Shown here in pieces: positions 11,630 through 17,769 of a stretch of 64,000 nucleotides of DNA. Numbering within the stretch: position 1 is the first letter of the stretch; every line of letters begins with the position of its first letter. The notes beneath the pieces were generated by a model. The model was not told the DNA's origin. It made no database searches and worked only from the letters and a program-made list of their open reading frames with translations. This stretch comes from a virus: UHGV virus genome UHGV-0242533. One strand, written 5' to 3'. A program made the translations under genes and the position numbers.

Positions 11630-12106
11630 ATGAATAAGGCAAACTTTGTAATCGGTGCTCTGGTATTAACCTTCGGTAGTATGGCTATCGCTGACAAGAT
11701 TGCTAGCGCTCCAGTTGCTCAAGCTGCTGTAGTTATGACTGATGCTGCTGATACATTCGTTAGCAACGCTCCTAAAGGTTGGATGGTTTGTAAAGGATTG
11801 GATTCAGATAACGTCACTACGTTGATGAAAGTTAAATTATCTAACGTAACCAATCGTGGTATGATTTTGTCTACTCGTACACTTGACAATCAGAACAATG
11901 AGGATATTCTTCTTTCCCGTAAAGACAATGACCCTGAGTTGATTACCTTTGGCGATGTGCAGACTATCAAAGGTTCTAAAGTTGTGACTAATCTTGTAAC
12001 GTATGGTACAATGCAAGAAACCATGTTAGCCACTTCCGTTTATGCTGCTGATAACAGTATTTGGACGTTCCGCTTTCAGATGGGTGATTGTGTTAAAGCA
12101 AAATAG
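11630..12106 (+). CDS. Secreted protein with signal peptide (158 aa)
   Basis: N-terminal MNKANFVIGALVLTFGSMAIA signal-like segment; RBS aaagggg. Confidence 0.55.
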   Translation: MNKANFVIGALVLTFGSMAIADKIASAPVAQAAVVMTDAADTFVSNAPKGWMVCKGLDSDNVTTLMKVKLSNVTNRGMILSTRTLDNQNNEDILLSRKDNDPELITFGDVQTIKGSKVVTNLVTYGTMQETMLATSVYAADNSIWTFRFQMGDCVKAK

Positions 12107-12109
12107 TTG

Positions 12110-12138
12110 TTGACACGGTTATAGATTGGCAGTATTAT
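12110..12138 (+). promoter_or_regulatory. Sigma70-like early promoter
   Basis: TTGACA, 17 nt spacer, TATTAT. Confidence 0.5.
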
Positions 12139-12173
12139 TACTTCATCAAGACAACATTAAAGGAATCAAGACA

Positions 12174-12503
12174 ATGAAAACCCTAATCGCATCTGCTCTT
12201 TTATCTGTAGCTGTTCTTTCAACTGTTGGATGTTCTTCTTCTCCGCGTCCTAACGGTTGGTGTGCTCTGGAAGTTGAAGGCACTTGTGTGATGCGTTGGA
12301 AAGATGGCGTTAAGGTTCCTGCTGGTGAGATTGACATGAAGTACGAAGGTGCTAGCTGTTCTAATGGTGGGTCTGTTGATGAAAAAGCCTATCGTGAGCG
12401 TGATATGAAAACACAAGCCGATTGGAAGAAGTCAGATTTTATCTCCCGAGCAACTCATTGCGGTGGCAATACTTCCGTTAAGGGTAAAGAATGGGACATT
12501 TAA
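12174..12503 (+). CDS. Lipoprotein (start at internal ATG 12174 preferred over ORF-track 12126)
   Basis: MKTLIASALLSVAVLSTVGC lipobox-type signal; RBS aagga; paralog of the 21091 gene. Confidence 0.55.
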   Translation: MKTLIASALLSVAVLSTVGCSSSPRPNGWCALEVEGTCVMRWKDGVKVPAGEIDMKYEGASCSNGGSVDEKAYRERDMKTQADWKKSDFISRATHCGGNTSVKGKEWDI

Positions 12504-12607
12504 AAAGATTAGTTTGCAATACTAGTTCTAACGTACTATCTTTGATTTTCACCGTGATTGCTACTGCAATTGCTTACTATGTTCTTGTTGTTTTGGGAGT
12601 GTGACTT

Positions 12608-12871
12608 ATGACTAAAGAGTACAGCTACACTATTCCCACCCGTAACTATGGCGATATTGACTTTTCTTACACTGACACATCTGACAAGTGTTTAATCTTG
12701 TTCGTTAGTGGTGATAATATTAATGCGGTGGAGTTTCCTGCTGTTGCTCTAATCATGGATGACGTTAAAGCTGGTCATTATCTAGCGCAACGTGGGGTTC
12801 TTCTGTCACTGGAAGAAATTAAATTGCTTAGAGTATCACTCTTTGAAGGTAAAGGCAACGATGAAGAATGA
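12608..12871 (+). CDS. Hypothetical protein (87 aa)
   Basis: ORF track; RBS gggag. Confidence 0.45.
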   Translation: MTKEYSYTIPTRNYGDIDFSYTDTSDKCLILFVSGDNINAVEFPAVALIMDDVKAGHYLAQRGVLLSLEEIKLLRVSLFEGKGNDEE

Positions 12872-13442
12872 TTATTTTTGGCGGTGCTTGTTCATTGCTA
12901 CAGTGGTGCTATTCGTCGCTGATATGCTTTACTCTTACGTTCTTTAAGGCCTGAGTGTGCTGTTTTTGTTTGTGTTTGTCGTGGGCTTCATTTCTTTAAA
13001 TTATTTACTGATTGTTGCCGCTCTGGATATTCTTAATCTCAATACTAAAGGTTGATTGCTATGTGGTTTATTAAATTCTTAGGCTTAATCTTTCTTCTTT
13101 ATTGTGCCGTAGTCATGCCTATGGTCATAATTTATCTGATTCTATAATCCTTCCTGTAAGCCTCCTAGTGAGGCTTTTCTCGTTTCTAAGGTGATTGTAT
13201 GCCTTCCTCCCTTTTAGCTCGTTGTGATGCTTCTGAGAGCGTCAAATAGTGCTTTACAAGCCTGTTTTAGTGTGTTATTCGCGTGCGCGTTCCTTTATAC
13301 CTCCCTTCCCTGAAAAAATAATCGAAATAGGTGTTGCTTTCCTCTATCACTTCCACTATCATCTATTCATCGGTTAAGCAGTACCAAGTAGACAACCTGA
13401 TAAGTCGTACGAAAAACAGGTAATCGATAAGAAATAAAAAGA

Positions 13443-13470
13443 TTGACAAGGTATCCAAACGTAGTAAGAT
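13443..13470 (+). promoter_or_regulatory. Strong sigma70-like promoter P1
   Basis: A-rich UP-like tract, TTGACA, 16 nt spacer, TAAGAT. Confidence 0.6.
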
Positions 13471-13590
13471 GGGTATCAGAAACAAAGCAAGGAAACTTGC
13501 AAATGCTCTTTAAAAACTTATCATCTTGCCCTTTCGCAAAGATTCACGCGAGATAAGGGAAAGGAATTCAAAGAAGATGATAAAAAAGAG

Positions 13591-13618
13591 TTGACAAGGT
13601 AATCCAGTGAGTTATAAT
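13591..13618 (+). promoter_or_regulatory. Strong sigma70-like promoter P2
   Basis: A-rich tract, TTGACA, 16 nt spacer, TATAAT. Confidence 0.65.
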
Positions 13619-13766
13619 GGTTGCCAGTTAGCAGATACACAGCTAACATGTTCTTTAAAAATATGACCTGATTCACTAGCCTAGCCGCTTAGTAATCCTC
13701 AATCAAATATAGCTGATTGATATATCCTCCCAATAAAGGGAACGACGAAAAAGATTAAAAAGATGG

Positions 13767-13795
13767 TTGACAGGCACTGAGAGTTAGGGCATAAT
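13767..13795 (+). promoter_or_regulatory. Strong sigma70-like promoter P3
   Basis: A-rich tract, TTGACA, 17 nt spacer, CATAAT. Confidence 0.6.
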
Positions 13796-14716
13796 GAGCA
13801 CATTAGCTAAGGGAAACATTCCGAAGCGAAGCGAGACAACGGCTAACAGTTGCATAGCGTGAGCAAACACGCTGATAGATTTACCGCTCTTTAACAATAT
13901 AAACGTTCTTCTATATCGGTTGAATATGCTTGATGATAATAACCATCGGAAAGCATACCAGATAAAACGGTGTAAGACTCTCTAGACTATCAGAGGAAAC
14001 AGTCTTGCAATCCCTTACTGGAAACGTCACCACTGATAAATGGATTCACTGAGTGCACGCAAAGACTTAAGCTAATCGCCCACGGTTAAGGGTAGCGGCG
14101 GTCATCGCTAACAAGGCGCTACAGTGAAAGAAGTTAATCAGGGTAGACAAGTCCGACAAATTAACGCCCAATTGAGGGCGGCGGGGAGCGGTTAAAAAGT
14201 GGCAAATTGCTATTTAACAATAAGGTTTAGTGTGAACGTTTACGATGTGAACGGCTTGAGATTCGTCTTACGATGAAAGTACATAGTCGGTTTATGTAGT
14301 AAACTCGCTGAAAGATATCAAACGTCGGAATACTAGACGGTTAATGACTCTTTCGCAATAGTCTCCCGTAGTGGGCGATGGCTAGCGATTGAGAGTTAAT
14401 ACAAAAGGATAGGCGAGAGCGAAAGCAAAGTAGACGATATTGCCGACGGTTACAATAACGTAACTAATTAGAGTCGGACACACTGCCTTATTGTGATGAT
14501 TGATCATCGCTATCAGGTCGGCTTTGTTTATAGCGACTAATTAAAGATACCAGATGAAACATCACGGATAAGGAGGCGGCAAGGTTAACTCCTGATAAGA
14601 CCGCCTCACTTACCTGTAACTGCTCAATAATGAGTGGTTAGAGTTAAGTTAATAGTGACTTAAACAAGCTCATAGAGAGCGGGGCATAGTGCCCTAAACA
14701 TTAAAAGGTAAATATC

Positions 14717-15616
14717 ATGGCTAAGATCTTCACTCTGGTTAACGAATCTGGTTTTAACGCTCTGGCTAACAACATCCGCAGCAACAACGCAGCGATTAAG
14801 CAAGACGTTTCTAACTTCCTGTTAGGGCACTTGCAGCACTTCCGTAGCAACGGTAAAAAGCTGGACGTATTACAAGCGGCGGTTGACTTCCTGTTAACTG
14901 AACGCTTCCGCGATATGGATGTTATTGCTACCGCAATCACTTTCTTAACCCCTATCAAGTTTAACACTGATGCGGCGAATGGTCGTAAAAAGTGGATTAA
15001 TCTGGAAGGCGAAGCGAAAGCGAAAGAAGATGCGAAAGAAGCGCAAATTAAAACCAAAATGGAACAAAACCGTGCCCGCTGGTCAAACGCTTTCGAAAAC
15101 TTCGCGTTAGGTCGTGAAATTGAAGTTGATAACCCTAACTTCTACAAAGGTTGCAATGACAACGTAGCGGCACACCTGCAAATCCCGGCGAAAAACAAGG
15201 AAGACTTTAACCAAGATATTTACGCTTTGGTTGAACGCTTGAATGCAATCCGTATTGAAGCCAAATTACTGGCTGATGAGCGCAACGGCGCAACTAGCGA
15301 TAACACTATCGCCCTGAGTGAAGAAGTTGGGAAGGTTAAAAAGTCCTTTGATTCACTCATCAAGAAAGTCACGGCCTCAACGGTAGCGATCTCGGATGAT
15401 TATCTGATGAACGCATCAAGCAAGGAATTAGAATCACTCGATTCATACGCTGATGAAATGGAAAAGACTGTTGCAGCTATGCAGGAGAAGTTAGAAAGTC
15501 TGCGCGGTCGTATCTCTTCAACGGTTGCTACCCGTACCGAACAAGCGGCGAAAGCAGAAGAGGAAGAAGTATTGCGTAAAGCGGCTGAAATTATGGCGGC
15601 ACGTCAGGCGGCATAA
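14717..15616 (+). CDS. Early protein of unknown function (299 aa)
   Basis: First sizeable gene downstream of three tandem strong promoters and a roughly 0.9 kb leader; followed by a strong terminator. Confidence 0.6.
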   Translation: MAKIFTLVNESGFNALANNIRSNNAAIKQDVSNFLLGHLQHFRSNGKKLDVLQAAVDFLLTERFRDMDVIATAITFLTPIKFNTDAANGRKKWINLEGEAKAKEDAKEAQIKTKMEQNRARWSNAFENFALGREIEVDNPNFYKGCNDNVAAHLQIPAKNKEDFNQDIYALVERLNAIRIEAKLLADERNGATSDNTIALSEEVGKVKKSFDSLIKKVTASTVAISDDYLMNASSKELESLDSYADEMEKTVAAMQEKLESLRGRISSTVATRTEQAAKAEEEEVLRKAAEIMAARQAA

Positions 15617-15638
15617 GTAAGACAATTTGAATAAACAT

Positions 15639-15675
15639 AAGGCGCTATCTTAACGGGTAGCGCCTTTTCTTTTAT
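15639..15675 (+). terminator. Intrinsic terminator
   Basis: Hairpin aaggcgcta...tagcgcctt followed by a T-run. Confidence 0.7.
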
Positions 15676-15718
15676 CAGTGCATTGATTCAGTGCATTAAT
15701 CAAAGAATCTAATCAAAG

Positions 15719-15946
15719 GTGACGATCATGTTAATTACACATACCACGATTTATAGGAATCTTGTCAATGGTCAACATTACCGCCTATCTAAAAAGTATG
15801 GCGTTGAATGTAAATGTGTTATTACCGGTGAATGGTATCCGTCGCCAATGAAGATTGAAACGCTGGAACGTGAAGCGATCAGTTATATTATCACGCAAGA
15901 AACAACGTTAGGCCGTATCTTAAGAAAGCTGGGATTGAGAAAATGA
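15719..15946 (+). CDS. Hypothetical small protein (start GTG 15719 or ATG 15728)
   Basis: ORF track; RBS aaaggtga. Confidence 0.45.
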   Translation: MTIMLITHTTIYRNLVNGQHYRLSKKYGVECKCVITGEWYPSPMKIETLEREAISYIITQETTLGRILRKLGLRK

Positions 15947-16167
15947 TATTCAGTAGTAATTTTGGCAAGTGTCCTATTTGTGAGAAACATCGCAGCACGG
16001 GAAACCATCGCAAATGTAGTAAGATATTACAGCGCCAACGTGATAACAAACATTGGGATACTGTACACACTAACCAGCGTAAAGAAGAAGTTAGGAAAAT
16101 GGCTGTTAAAGCGTCATTTGCTCAATCAACCCGTATTGAACACATTCAAAGGTATCAAGCATCATGA
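15943..16167 (+). CDS. Small basic Cys/His-containing protein (74 aa)
   Basis: ATGA start/stop overlaps at both ends (translational coupling); CPICEKH...H motif. Confidence 0.5.
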   Translation: MIFSSNFGKCPICEKHRSTGNHRKCSKILQRQRDNKHWDTVHTNQRKEEVRKMAVKASFAQSTRIEHIQRYQAS

Positions 16168-16442: not shown

Positions 16443-16886
16443 GTGGCTAAATCTAAAATCAGCATGAAGGGCGGGCGTTGTTTTGCTATCTCTGAACTAG
16501 AGAAAGAGAAACCGAAGGCAACTAATCACGTTAGTAAGCGTAGTTTAAAACGTCGTGCTGCAAAGGCTGAGGCTGAATCCCATGTTCCTTCCAGTGTGGC
16601 AAAGCGTGTAGGCCATCGTGTCCATCGGGCTGATGCGTTGTTGTTGGCTGATCATAAACGTTCTTTGTTAAAGAGCGGGGGAGCTAAAACAGAAGAGGAG
16701 AAGAAGTTAGAAATCTTCTGTAATGGTCGCACCCGTGGTAAACAGAAGTTTAAAGGTAGCACGAAAGACCCGCAGGCTTTCCCTAAGACAAGCCAGTGTG
16801 CACCTGATGTTTTCTACGCAGATAGTAAACACAAGTGGGGCGTTGAAAAATACATTGACCCCATCAAAGAGGCAAGGGTTAAGTAG
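16443..16886 (+). CDS. Highly basic protein (147 aa)
   Basis: Lys/Arg-rich; RBS aaaggaataag before GTG/ATG. Confidence 0.45.
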   Translation: MAKSKISMKGGRCFAISELEKEKPKATNHVSKRSLKRRAAKAEAESHVPSSVAKRVGHRVHRADALLLADHKRSLLKSGGAKTEEEKKLEIFCNGRTRGKQKFKGSTKDPQAFPKTSQCAPDVFYADSKHKWGVEKYIDPIKEARVK

Positions 16887-16966: not shown

Positions 16967-17020
16967 AGCCGCCTTTGAGCGGCTTTTTGCGTTACCGCCT
17001 CCTTAATTGGAGGCTTTTTT
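16967..17020 (+). terminator. Two tandem intrinsic terminators
   Basis: agccgc-loop-gcggct+TTTTT and gcctcc-loop-ggaggc+TTTTTT. Confidence 0.65.
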
Positions 17021-17046
17021 GTATCTATTATATAGGAAACCATGAA

Positions 17047-17769
17047 ATGAAAGCATTTGCATTGTCAGCTATTCTAGTTTTATCTGCCATTAGTGCCCCA
17101 TCCTTTGCTCATTCTGACAAATGCTCACACTCTAAACAGTGTGAAGTCCAGCAGGGGCCGAAAGGTGATAAAGGAGAACAGGGTATTCAAGGCGAACAAG
17201 GTCCGAAAGGTGACAAGGGTGATCGCGGAGAGCAGGGCTTAAAAGGTGATACTGGATCGGCTGGCATCAATGGTACTAATGGCATTGATGGTAAAGATGG
17301 CATTGATGGTAAAGATGGCGCTCAAGGTGAAAAAGGTGATTCTGGTGCAGATGGTAAGAAAGGCGAAACTGGCCTAACTGGTGCAGCAGGTTTGAATGGC
17401 GTTGACGGATTAAATGGCAAAAATGGTAAAGATGCAGATATGTCTGCCGTTAATGCTAACGCCAAATCTATCAAAGCTCTGGAACAATCCACCAACAAAC
17501 GTTTTGCTTCTTTGCAAAAACAAGTAGACCGTAACCGTGATCATGCCTCTGCTGGTATTTCTGGCGTGGCTGCAATGGCTAACATCCCGCAAGTAAGTCA
17601 AGGATCTGCTTTCTCTGTTGGTGCTGGGGTAGGTGCTTACGATGGTGAATCTGCTCTTGCTATTGGTGTTAGTGCTCGTTTCAATGAAAACGTAGTAACT
17701 AAAGCATCAGTGGCAATGACTTCAGAGAGTGACGCTGTTCTGGGCGCTGGTGTAAGTTACGAGTGGTAA
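17047..17769 (+). CDS. Collagen-like protein with signal peptide and YadA-like C-terminal anchor
   Basis: Start taken at internal ATG with RBS. Signal MKAFALSAILVLSAISAPSFA; long GXX collagen-like repeat run; C-terminus SAGISGVAAMANIPQV...SALAIGVS...VTKASVAMT...GAGVSYEW resembles the trimeric-autotransporter anchor. Confidence 0.6.
   Translation: MKAFALSAILVLSAISAPSFAHSDKCSHSKQCEVQQGPKGDKGEQGIQGEQGPKGDKGDRGEQGLKGDTGSAGINGTNGIDGKDGIDGKDGAQGEKGDSGADGKKGETGLTGAAGLNGVDGLNGKNGKDADMSAVNANAKSIKALEQSTNKRFASLQKQVDRNRDHASAGISGVAAMANIPQVSQGSAFSVGAGVGAYDGESALAIGVSARFNENVVTKASVAMTSESDAVLGAGVSYEW

Follow-up and report, generated by a model that had tools for sequence, protein, structure and literature searches.

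A large structured RNA behind tandem promoters and predicted rrn-type boxA elements in the early region of phiEco32-like phages

Cells normally keep a fast, Rho-resistant transcription complex for long untranslated RNAs. In the rrn operons of E. coli, tandem P1 and P2 promoters with UP elements precede a leader of the order boxB-boxA-boxC, which is served by a Nus-factor/SuhB antitermination complex and in which the boxB-like hairpin is dispensable. The host boxA/Nus pathway of processive antitermination is also used by phages, as exemplified by the nut sites of lambda, composed of boxA followed by boxB and associated with the N protein. Non-coding RNAs that are both large and intricately folded are rare and mostly of no known function, and the hosts of the phage-tied GOLLD and ROOL RNAs are hard to work with. 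In the early region of T7 (sequence taken from PMC11863960), promoters A1, A2 and A3 are followed by a boxA, the RNase III site R0.3 and gene 0.3. Finally, long untranslated RNA is terminated by Rho, which boxA counteracts, and in boxA-protected CRISPR arrays, whose untranslated transcripts are unusually long, this element lies close to the 5′ end, presumably as a defence against Rho (Stringer et al. 2020, PMC7665894).

Here, we analysed a stretch of 64,000 nucleotides (the window) from a Kuravirus (phiEco32-like) coliphage, focusing on positions 12872-14716, the known "spacer" that separates phiEco32 genes 125 and 124. Three sigma70 promoters have already been placed in the 125/124 spacer by the SU10 genome paper, "like phiEco32". 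New are the assignment of the repeated element behind these promoters to boxA, the recognition of the leader as a large structured RNA, and the constant linkage of this RNA to homologues of the adjoining 299-aa gene. Full-text searches, which could miss Savalia 2008 and Pavlova 2012, returned no paper joining phiEco32 or Kuravirus to boxA or to a non-coding RNA, and in genome annotations of these phages the 1.9 kb are either empty or occupied by spurious small ORFs. CHD5UKE1 is among the records annotating many small ORFs in the region. The region itself is a few kb away from the end of the genome where the early genes are.

Layout of the spacer and its promoters

The original prediction described 12872-14716 as devoid of ORFs of at least 60 aa, and indeed none is present on either strand; all the features that it listed were likewise found where it had placed them. 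As an ORF-free stretch, however, the spacer has to be redrawn at its beginning, because the first 300 bp hold three conserved mini-ORFs. Hydrophobic in character and located on the plus strand at 12861-12947 (28 aa), 12957-13055 (32 aa, GTG start) and 13061-13147 (28 aa), they are the last ORFs of the upstream early operon. An SD-like AAGG stands ahead of each of them, and their peptides are 70-93% conserved in many relatives (tblastn). The operon is closed by an intrinsic terminator identified by a terminator scan at 13158..13185 on the plus strand (AAGCCTCCTAGTGAGGCTT then TTCTCGTTT, with 13158-13176 followed by a T run), and the records of SU10 and SU7 carry an annotated terminator at the equivalent place.

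The three promoters, all on the plus strand, had been predicted to aim at the single 299-aa gene, and they are real, conserved and, for SU10/phiEco32, already published. P1 (13418..13470, −35 at 13443) reads TTGACA-16-TAAGAT (10/12) and is conserved in relatives, P2 (13566..13618, −35 at 13591) reads TTGACA-16-TATAAT (12/12), and P3 (13742..13795, −35 at 13767) reads TTGACA-17-CATAAT (11/12), with a predicted transcription start near 13802. The A-rich tract reported upstream of each one is borne out by counting, as 14-15 A per 25 nt precede the −35 hexamer at P1, P2 and P3. While promoter-like sites scored at a loose threshold occur at chance level (14 vs 14.7), matches of at least 11/12 number six in the 64 kb, all on the plus strand, compared to about 2.5 expected on both strands. 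The cluster is kept in every relative, and the position of P3 is fixed at −940 to −959 from the ATG in 24/24 close relatives. P1-P3 are presumably active promoters, a view backed by the published phiEco32/SU10 work.

The E. coli rrn control region likewise has near-consensus sigma70 promoters that stand in tandem behind A-rich tracts, and in T7 as well the first early gene is preceded by three strong host-type promoters in a row. At the DNA level, a 37-bp block on the plus strand at 13386..13422 is identical at 35/37 positions to the T7 sequence just upstream of A2 (pairwise blastn, E = 3.5e-10), and an identical CGCTCTTTAACAAT is found downstream of the last promoter. Apart from this block and the shared boxA 14-mer, the rest of the region is unrelated to T7. 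The T7 early region contains a single boxA, and its leader measures about 175 nt, whereas in our phage every promoter is followed by a separate boxA and the structured leader spans about 915 nt; moreover, the first gene of our phage encodes 299 aa and shows no sequence similarity to gene 0.3, the product of which has about 117 aa.

Predicted boxA modules downstream of the promoters

A related CTCTTTAA(A/C)AA element had been noticed behind each promoter, and it is present at 13504-13516, 13649-13661 and 13885-13897. Judged by its sequence, it is an rrn-type boxA and not a novel motif. The P3 copy (CGCTCTTTAACAA) agrees with GCTCTTTAACAA at 12/12 positions, followed by the P1 copy with 11/12 and the P2 copy with 10/12; both of the latter depart from the consensus by an A at position 10, and P2 additionally has T for C. 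The rrn boxA pattern UGCUCUUUAACAA occurs on the transcribed strand, with a core match of 12/12 at P3. The P3 copy also equals the boxA of E. coli rrnG (CACugcucuuuaacaauuua; PMC2724277) at 12/12, and its AGATTTACCGCTCTTTAA is invariant across 24 phages. When the NusA-binding spacer is included, the consensus of the relatives (GCTCTTTAACAATTTA) is identical to boxA plus spacer of rrnG (GCUCUUUAACAAUUUA) at 16/16 positions, and the window at 15/16.

Each boxA is situated about 30-85 nt past the predicted start of P1, P2 or P3, and 3-12 nt upstream of it lies a hairpin, so that the order is that of rrn. On the plus strand, the P1 module (13487..13516) consists of the hairpin GCAAG-GAAA-CTTGC (13487-13500) and boxA TGCTCTTTAAAAA (13504-13516), and the P2 module (13627..13661) of the hairpin GTTAGC...GCTAAC (13627-13647) and the boxA variant TGTTCTTTAAAAA (13649-13661). 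In the P3 module (13831..13897), two boxB-like hairpins (13837-13852 and 13856-13873) precede boxA (13885-13897), and both of these (helices 2 and 3) bear compensatory changes. About 830 nt of non-coding RNA follow downstream of boxA. A fourth, boxA-like site at 14208, GCTATTTAACAA, is enclosed in a plus-strand hairpin (14197..14215); distant clades keep only its base-pairing part, and it was rejected as a boxA and retained as a structural element. Unlike in lambda nut, where boxA comes first, has the form CGCUCUUA and is followed by boxB, here the hairpin precedes a full rrn-consensus boxA (CUUUA), and no N-like protein is implied. Binding of NusB/NusE and Rho resistance would be expected at these boxA copies. 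The difference from rrn is that we are dealing with a phage element comprising three to five promoter/boxA modules compared to one in rrn, that its RNA is fused to an mRNA, and that Nus involvement is a prediction from sequence.

Between two and five promoter-hairpin-boxA modules per genome were found in all of the approximately 40 related genomes, the last boxA being located 825-936 nt upstream of the ATG, and a perfect boxA lies 870-936 nt upstream of the ATG in 8/8 distant loci. The variable copy number of modules behind near-consensus promoters would also be compatible with a different role, namely that of a sink that titrates NusB/NusE (or RNA polymerase) away from host rrn operons and thereby shuts the host off; in lambda, a transcribed boxA reportedly competes for a host factor in a comparable manner. 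We regard such a sink as improbable as the main role of the modules, since the P3 boxA is fixed in place and the others come and go, which fits redundancy of promoters better than dosage, and since the conserved 850-nt structure downstream would be left unexplained. The related proposal of a promoter-dense decoy for RNA polymerase, put forward in the original prediction, found no evidence in its favour and likewise does not account for the strand-specific covariation of the RNA.

Fold and covariation of the leader RNA

In the 0.9-kb leader we recognize a genuine structured RNA of large size, about 850 nt (approximately 13831-14695), and the structured leader or non-coding RNA once suggested for this place is strongly borne out by covariation. 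According to RNAalifold and pair counts, and with all elements on the plus strand, it contains two multi-helix domains. Domain I (13898..14196, about 300 nt) is closed by a long-range helix, 13898-13911 / 14183-14196, and comprises the hairpins 13925-13957, 13972-14008 and 14166-14179 together with a long three-way arm at 14026-14148. Domain II (14217..14494, about 280 nt) is closed by 14217-14234 / 14479-14494 and 14237-14243 / 14430-14436, and includes a hairpin at 14252-14289, a multi-branch arm at 14304-14417, the GCGAAAGC tetraloop hairpin at 14419-14426, and an arm at 14443-14477. A series of 3′ hairpins (14495..14695) completes the fold, with its members at 14495-14508, 14516-14538, 14553-14563, 14573-14607, 14614-14643, 14645-14662, 14668-14680 and 14681-14695; helices 33 and 35 of this series have five compensatory pairs each.

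In the structure of 24 phages, 233 pairs are predicted and 99.2% of cells are paired. Compensatory changes affect 77 pairs (369 cells), compared to only 5-10 pairs (8-31 cells) in controls with slid partners, and the observed values were reached by none of 500 shuffles. The leader is 84-95% conserved, essentially without indels, which is on par with the DNA of the CDS. The unpaired columns are conserved too, with 249/446 of them invariant, and motifs such as UGUAGURAA and the GCGAAAGC tetraloop hairpin persist in clades with a protein identity of only 49%. Strong selection thus acts both on the pairing and on the single-stranded sequence, which argues for an RNA that is functional in its own right and not for a spacer.

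Could the region instead act as DNA, with the structure being incidental? It might, for example, be where replication starts, act as a signal for packaging or entry, or carry an array of protein-binding sites. Its location a few kb from the genome end with the early genes and the 37-bp block in common with the T7 early promoter region would be in line with this option, which we nonetheless consider very unlikely. The compensatory changes preserve base pairs rather than sequence, and G:U cells outnumber A:C cells by 553 to 17, which identifies the folded strand as plus-strand RNA and makes the pairing specific to the transcribed strand. Furthermore, the plus strand folds 34 kcal/mol better than the minus strand (z-scores of −8.7 and −4.3, respectively), and neither a direct-repeat array, sought by eye, nor an anomaly of composition was seen in the leader.

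Protein-coding capacity hidden in small proteins, a frameshifted ORF or recoding is still harder to credit, and we attach almost no weight to it. Many small ORFs are annotated in some records, an 89-aa ORF occurs in two relatives, and the window's boxA copies at P1 and P2 begin with ATG; in most relatives, however, boxA reads CGCTCTTTAA and has no ATG. The absence of sizeable ORFs downstream of P3 was correctly predicted, as the longest have 25 aa on the plus and 41 aa on the minus strand, and in relatives the longest plus-strand ORF of the leader ranges from 23 to 89 aa and is not conserved. Variable columns are spread evenly over the codon phases of the leader (116/120/118, p=0.97), in sharp contrast with the three-base periodicity of substitutions in the CDS (81/53/248, p=1e-38). 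The frameshifted long ORF that was to refute the original prediction is therefore excluded by ORF conservation and codon-phase periodicity.

The product of this region is thus a long, untranslated and highly structured RNA with long-range helices, as in the rrn operons, with no similarity to rRNA or its leader in either Rfam or E. coli genomes. It shares with boxA-protected CRISPR arrays the position of boxA near the 5′ end of such a transcript, but forms a single complex fold instead of a repeat array and belongs to a virulent phage. The leader is, however, C-poor (18.7% C vs 23.8% G) and highly paired, and might offer Rho little purchase whether or not a boxA is present, which speaks against a need for antitermination. 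A sponge for CsrA was dismissed as a possible role, because GGA occurs 11 times in 915 nt, compared to about 17 times expected from composition, and is hence not enriched.

Linkage to the 299-aa gene and possible roles of the RNA

As anticipated, the unit ends in a single 299-aa gene with a strong terminator. The gene (14717-15616, plus strand), headed by the SD AAAGG at 14704, is a homologue of phiEco32 gp124 and falls into phrog_13018, a PHROGs family without assigned function. Its intrinsic terminator on the same strand (15639..15675) consists of a 12-bp stem (15639-15666) and a T run, and the most distant relatives possess a terminator of other sequence at the same place after the gene. 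Searches with the protein yielded only sub-threshold coiled-coil noise in Pfam and nothing meaningful in PADLOC and PDB sequences, and its AlphaFold model (pLDDT 70) had no informative Foldseek matches in PDB or BFVD. The original prediction put it forward as the likely major early protein and a candidate host-takeover or anti-defence factor; codon optimality above the median (Fop 0.62, rank 5 of 46) is the sole pointer to high expression, and hints at it.

The RNA always adjoins homologues of this gene, down to 49% protein identity. An nhmmer profile also matches leaders whose adjoining homologue is 70% or 49% identical in protein sequence, and R1, a covariance model of domain II, has one match per genome in all three clades (E 7e-6 to 1e-73); in its alignment, 95.6% of cells are paired and 56/75 pairs are compensatory. 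In the most distant clade, the confirmation by covariance model concerns this domain, the inner arms of which are replaced there. In phage 7-11, the leader of which has about 1.15 kb, neither a sequence nor a covariance-model match was obtained, and its relatives were too few for covariation. Protein-based scans of IMG/VR and JGI metagenomes recovered close kuraviruses only, and of 32 stretches returned by an IMG/VR motif scan, just five contigs, all of known kuraviruses, passed the covariance model. Across the genomes and the IMG/VR and JGI metagenomes scanned, the leader RNA is found only in phiEco32-like phages. An origin from the host was discarded, as a search of 5,426 E. coli genomes came back empty. 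With cmscan of 12000-16000 on both strands, Rfam 15 gave no matches at E up to 1, its models of group I/II introns, RNase P, tmRNA, 6S, rRNA and riboswitches included, and tRNA/tmRNA searches of the region were negative. The RNA resembles the ornate RNAs (GOLLD, ROOL; also OLE, HEARO and raiA) in its length of hundreds of nt, its intricate covariation-supported fold and its phage context, yet it matches none of them and differs in that it opens an early operon governed by sigma70 promoters and boxA and has one particular protein gene as its constant neighbour.

Such constant adjacency also invites another explanation, in which the structured region has no function of its own and works purely in cis, as the 5′ untranslated leader of the 299-aa gene, to which it supplies RNase III/RNase E processing sites, protective hairpins and perhaps SD occlusion, similar to an enlarged form of the T7 site R0.3, which lies between A3 and gene 0.3. 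The RNA indeed lies directly upstream of the gene in every case, its last hairpins end about 10-20 nt before the SD, and the order of promoters, boxA, leader and first gene is identical in T7. In addition, the long irregular stem 14026-14056 / 14116-14148 is a possible RNase III substrate, and RNAalifold pairs the CUUU of boxA (13889-13892) with the AAAG of the SD (14704-14707), positions that are invariant and hence without covariation. Nevertheless, some 850 nt with two multi-helix domains go far beyond the needs of known stabilizing or processing leaders, and a purely structural leader would not call for more than half of the unpaired positions to be invariant, nor for the retention of UGUAGURAA and the tetraloop hairpin in the distant clades. 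We therefore view a purely cis-acting leader as possible but doubtful.

Our preferred reading is that the locus is the main early transcription unit and is organized like an rRNA operon, with host RNA polymerase made Rho-resistant to yield a structured RNA fused to early mRNA, and we consider this scenario probable. Each of the three tandem strong promoters with A-rich tracts would transcribe a short hairpin and then an rrn-type boxA, the RNA of which would recruit host NusB/NusE(S10) as well as NusA, NusG and SuhB. RNA polymerase would thereby become a fast, Rho-resistant complex that folds the RNA during its synthesis, giving rise to an abundant RNA that goes untranslated and, over about 850 nt, forms two domains of about 300 nt as well as the 3′ hairpins. 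Transcription would run straight on to give the mRNA of the 299-aa early gene, and would stop at the strong intrinsic terminator.

As for the function of the leader RNA, most likely it either serves the adjacent protein as its scaffold or partner or is a trans-acting takeover RNA. More specifically, and with some hesitation, we suggest that it may represent a new class of phage non-coding RNA, about 850 nt long, made in rRNA-like amounts by means of the host rrn antitermination/RNA-chaperone complex in the first minutes of infection, and acting itself in takeover or counter-defence, be it in a particle formed with the 299-aa protein or, as a machine or decoy, by RNA alone. Comparable in size to the known ornate RNAs and with unusually clean covariation support, it occurs in virulent coliphages that are well studied, easily grown, used in phage therapy and represented in the BASEL collection, and its promoters and antitermination signal are open to E. 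coli genetics through nusB, nusE, suhB and rho alleles. If the proposed scenario is true, a virulent phage would have copied the whole expression logic of an rRNA operon, from the tandem UP-element promoters through the boxB-like hairpin to boxA, for an untranslated RNA.

Promoter-boxA modules in an unannotated gap

The studied region corresponds to a ~1.95 kb unannotated gap between genes 125 and 124 of phiEco32 (121 and 120 in SU10). A megablast search with 12872-15700 gave matches to 98 phage records (76-94% identity), every one a phiEco32-like coliphage of Kuravirus or a sister genus in the subfamily Gordonclarkvirinae; the + strand of the window is the minus strand in most of them. The promoter cluster is already known from the SU10 genome paper. 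We found no comment on the rest of the gap in the genus-level papers surveyed. In CHD5UKE1 (L002 2647-4237), as many as 11 small 'hypothetical proteins', the majority on the wrong strand, are annotated across the leader, i.e. the non-coding stretch between the third promoter and the 299-aa gene, and the 121-aa upstream gene of SU10 (L001 2456-2821) is labelled 'terminase' in the public record; both are likely annotation artefacts.

The three originally predicted sigma70 promoters were recovered at 13443 (P1, 10/12), 13591 (P2, 12/12) and 13767 (P3, 11/12), each behind an A-rich tract (14-15 A per 25 nt). At a loose threshold, promoter-like sites occur at chance frequency (14 versus 14.7). A whole-window scan for matches of at least 11/12 returned six sites in 64 kb (11560, 12110, 13591, 13767, 45693 and 47922), all on the + strand, against ~2.5 expected on both strands; among these, a boxA follows only in the studied cluster, which is kept in all relatives. 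The region had also been described as free of ORFs of 60 aa or more. Indeed, 12872-14716 holds none, but three conserved hydrophobic mini-ORFs (28, 32 and 28 aa), each with an SD, lie at 12861-13147, their peptides being 70-93% conserved in relatives. Since these are followed by an intrinsic terminator (13158-13185), the truly non-coding part begins near 13190. In phiEco32, the 122-aa gene 125 occupies the place of the middle mini-ORF.

The related element noted behind each promoter is present at all three, and we can now identify it as an rrn-type boxA: TGCTCTTTAAAAA at 13504 downstream of P1, TGTTCTTTAAAAA at 13649 downstream of P2 and CGCTCTTTAACAA at 13885 downstream of P3. Compared with the E. 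coli rrnG antiterminator, CAC-UGCUCUUUAACAAUUUA (lambda boxA being CGCUCUUA; PMC2724277), the P3 copy matches at 12/12 positions, and in the relatives' consensus the rrnG match continues through the NusA-binding spacer, GCTCTTTAACAATTTA. A hairpin precedes each boxA, as in the boxB-boxA order of E. coli rrn, and both hairpins 5′ of the P3 boxA (helices 2 and 3) show compensatory changes. In rRNA operons and long untranslated CRISPR arrays, boxA RNA binds NusB/NusE to form a Rho-resistant elongation complex (PMC7665894), and the sequence match suggests that the copies in the window would do likewise; less probably, they may act as a sink for Nus factors.

Each of the 24 close relatives (L001-L024) has 3-5 copies of boxA, a promoter being detected ahead of most, with the last at a constant place, 825-836 nt 5′ of the ATG. 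Across these and further loci upstream of gene-124 homologues (L025-L043), the promoter-hairpin-boxA modules number two to five per relative, the last one positionally fixed. The same layout recurs in eight distant loci located via homologues of the 299-aa protein (70% and 49% identity); in 8/8, a boxA without mismatch lies 870-936 nt 5′ of the ATG.

Two other boxA-like sequences were considered. GCTATTTAACAA at 14208-14220, which has a C-to-A change equivalent to that of lambda boxA16, was rejected as a fourth boxA: distant clades retain only TTTAAYAAT, kept for its pairing with the 3′ strand of RNA domain II (14485-14494). It is a structural strand, and perhaps a relic of module duplication. 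A perfect 12/12 GCTCTTTAACAA at 16665-16676, on the − strand within the + strand ORF 16443-16886, probably occurs by chance, as it has no evident promoter context.

Phage T7 carries an identical CGCTCTTTAACAAT 3′ of its A1-A2-A3 promoters (T7 sequence from PMC11863960), and the DNA directly upstream of its early promoter A2 is 35/37 identical to a 37-bp block of the window (13386-13422). These sequence matches suggest that unrelated podophages either inherited such early-promoter DNA from a common ancestor or exchanged it. In Salmonella phage 7-11 (NC_015938; L045 4865-5917, L046 1-222), the two experimentally validated early promoters are separated from the first gene, gp151, by ~1.15 kb in which no ORF is annotated, giving an analogous long leader in the sister family. 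That leader is without boxA or similarity to the RNA of the window, and its three relatives in the phage collection are too few for covariation.

A conserved, folded leader RNA

The suggestion of a structured leader or non-coding RNA is strongly supported by covariation over 24 phages. Among them, 13870-14716 is 84-95% conserved and essentially indel-free, which equals the DNA conservation of the 299-aa coding sequence, whose protein is 80-99% identical in these relatives. RNAalifold predicted 233 pairs in 38 helices; in the MAFFT alignment of the 24 phages, standard pairs make up 99.2% of 5,583 cells (one pair in one sequence), with changes on both sides at 77 pairs (369 cells). Moving the 3′ partners by 1-3 columns (slid control) left such changes at merely 5-10 pairs (8-31 cells), and column shuffles gave 39.6 ± 3.3 pairs, the observed value being reached in 0/500. 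A DNA-level element is an unlikely alternative; the excess of G:U over A:C cells (553 versus 17) indicates that it is the + strand transcript that folds. Single-sequence folding gave −283.9 kcal/mol (z = −8.7), versus −249.4 kcal/mol (z = −4.3) for the opposite strand. Unpaired nucleotides, half of the leader, are as conserved as paired ones (249/446 invariant).

Hidden coding, a further alternative, was ruled out: codon periodicity is absent from the substitutions in the leader (116/120/118, p=0.97; CDS 81/53/248, p=1e-38), and no + strand ORF in the leader is conserved, the longest (23-89 aa) not being kept among relatives. The 89-aa open frame inside the leader of Bas88 and TH43 (L022 and L020), missing from the other 22 phages, is most likely fortuitous.

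The RNA starts with the boxB-like hairpins and boxA, followed by domain I (13898-14196; closing helix 13898-13911/14183-14196), a hairpin between the domains (14197-14215), domain II (14217-14494; closing helix 14217-14234/14479-14494) and eight 3′ hairpins ending at 14695, ahead of the SD (AAAGG) and the ATG (14717) of the 299-aa gene. A UGUAGURAA motif and a GCGAAAGC tetraloop hairpin are retained in all clades.

An nhmmer profile of the alignment matched the leader at every distant locus (E 1e-18 to 1e-116). When the structure was projected onto the sequence alignment, PAS59 (76% identical) retained 233/233 pairs, 49 of them compensatory, and L041, a distant locus (63% identical), retained 84%, with 64 compensatory versus 13-21 in slid controls. 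R1, a covariance model of domain II, found a single full-length copy in the window and one in each distant locus, among them two loci left out of model building (E = 5e-38 and 2e-27) and the four loci of 49% protein identity (E 7e-6 to 1.7e-19). In the R1 alignment, itself fitted to the model, pairing holds in 95.6% of cells and 56/75 pairs are compensatory, versus 11-20 in slid controls. Folded separately, the four most distant leaders again formed two long-range-closed domains and 3′ hairpins. The leader is present in 98/98 phage records (coverage at least 96%). In IMG/VR, scanning for motifs shared across clades and screening the hits with R1 left only the five kuravirus contigs. No homologue occurs in 5,426 E. 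coli genomes, and no Rfam family matches the region at E up to 1. Neither the RNA without a homologue of the 299-aa gene nor the gene without the RNA was ever found.

The transcription unit and its possible role

The 299-aa protein falls in a PHROG of unknown function, and searches of Pfam, PADLOC and PDB gave it no real relatives; its AlphaFold model (pLDDT 70) consists mostly of helices, among them a long C-terminal one, and fold matches were uninformative. The gene's codon optimality exceeds the window median (Fop 0.62 versus 0.49, rank 5/46). The strong intrinsic terminator predicted 3′ of it was recovered, and the most distant clade has one of other sequence in the same place. Because rrn-type antitermination acts on Rho-dependent terminators, not intrinsic ones, the stretch from promoters to terminator, with boxA, RNA and gene between them, looks like a self-contained unit. 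Elsewhere in the early region, an unusual 264-aa ORF (16975-17769) combines collagen-like G-X-Y repeats with a YadA-like C-terminus; gp119 of phiEco32 carries the annotation 'agglutinating adhesin', and the homologue from a distant relative matches Pfam Collagen and YadA_anchor.

The best-supported reading of the promoter-boxA-RNA-gene unit is an expression cassette resembling an rRNA operon, in which tandem UP-element promoters would load polymerases, boxA would turn these into Nus-modified complexes, and an untranslated, elaborately folded RNA would be made rapidly in front of a single early mRNA. Holding boxA at the polymerase probably helps far-apart rRNA strands to find each other, which would suit the long-range helix that starts directly after boxA. 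The RNA might alternatively be a pure cis leader; we favour an autonomous role, as a partner of gp124 (the phiEco32 homologue of the 299-aa protein) or a takeover RNA acting in trans, given how large it is, how it is organized in domains and how strictly its unpaired nucleotides are conserved. As far as we could determine, neither the assignment to boxA nor the structured RNA has been described in the literature surveyed, the two primary phiEco32 papers being outside that survey. The nearest known kinds are boxA-protected untranslated RNAs and the large ornate RNAs of phages.
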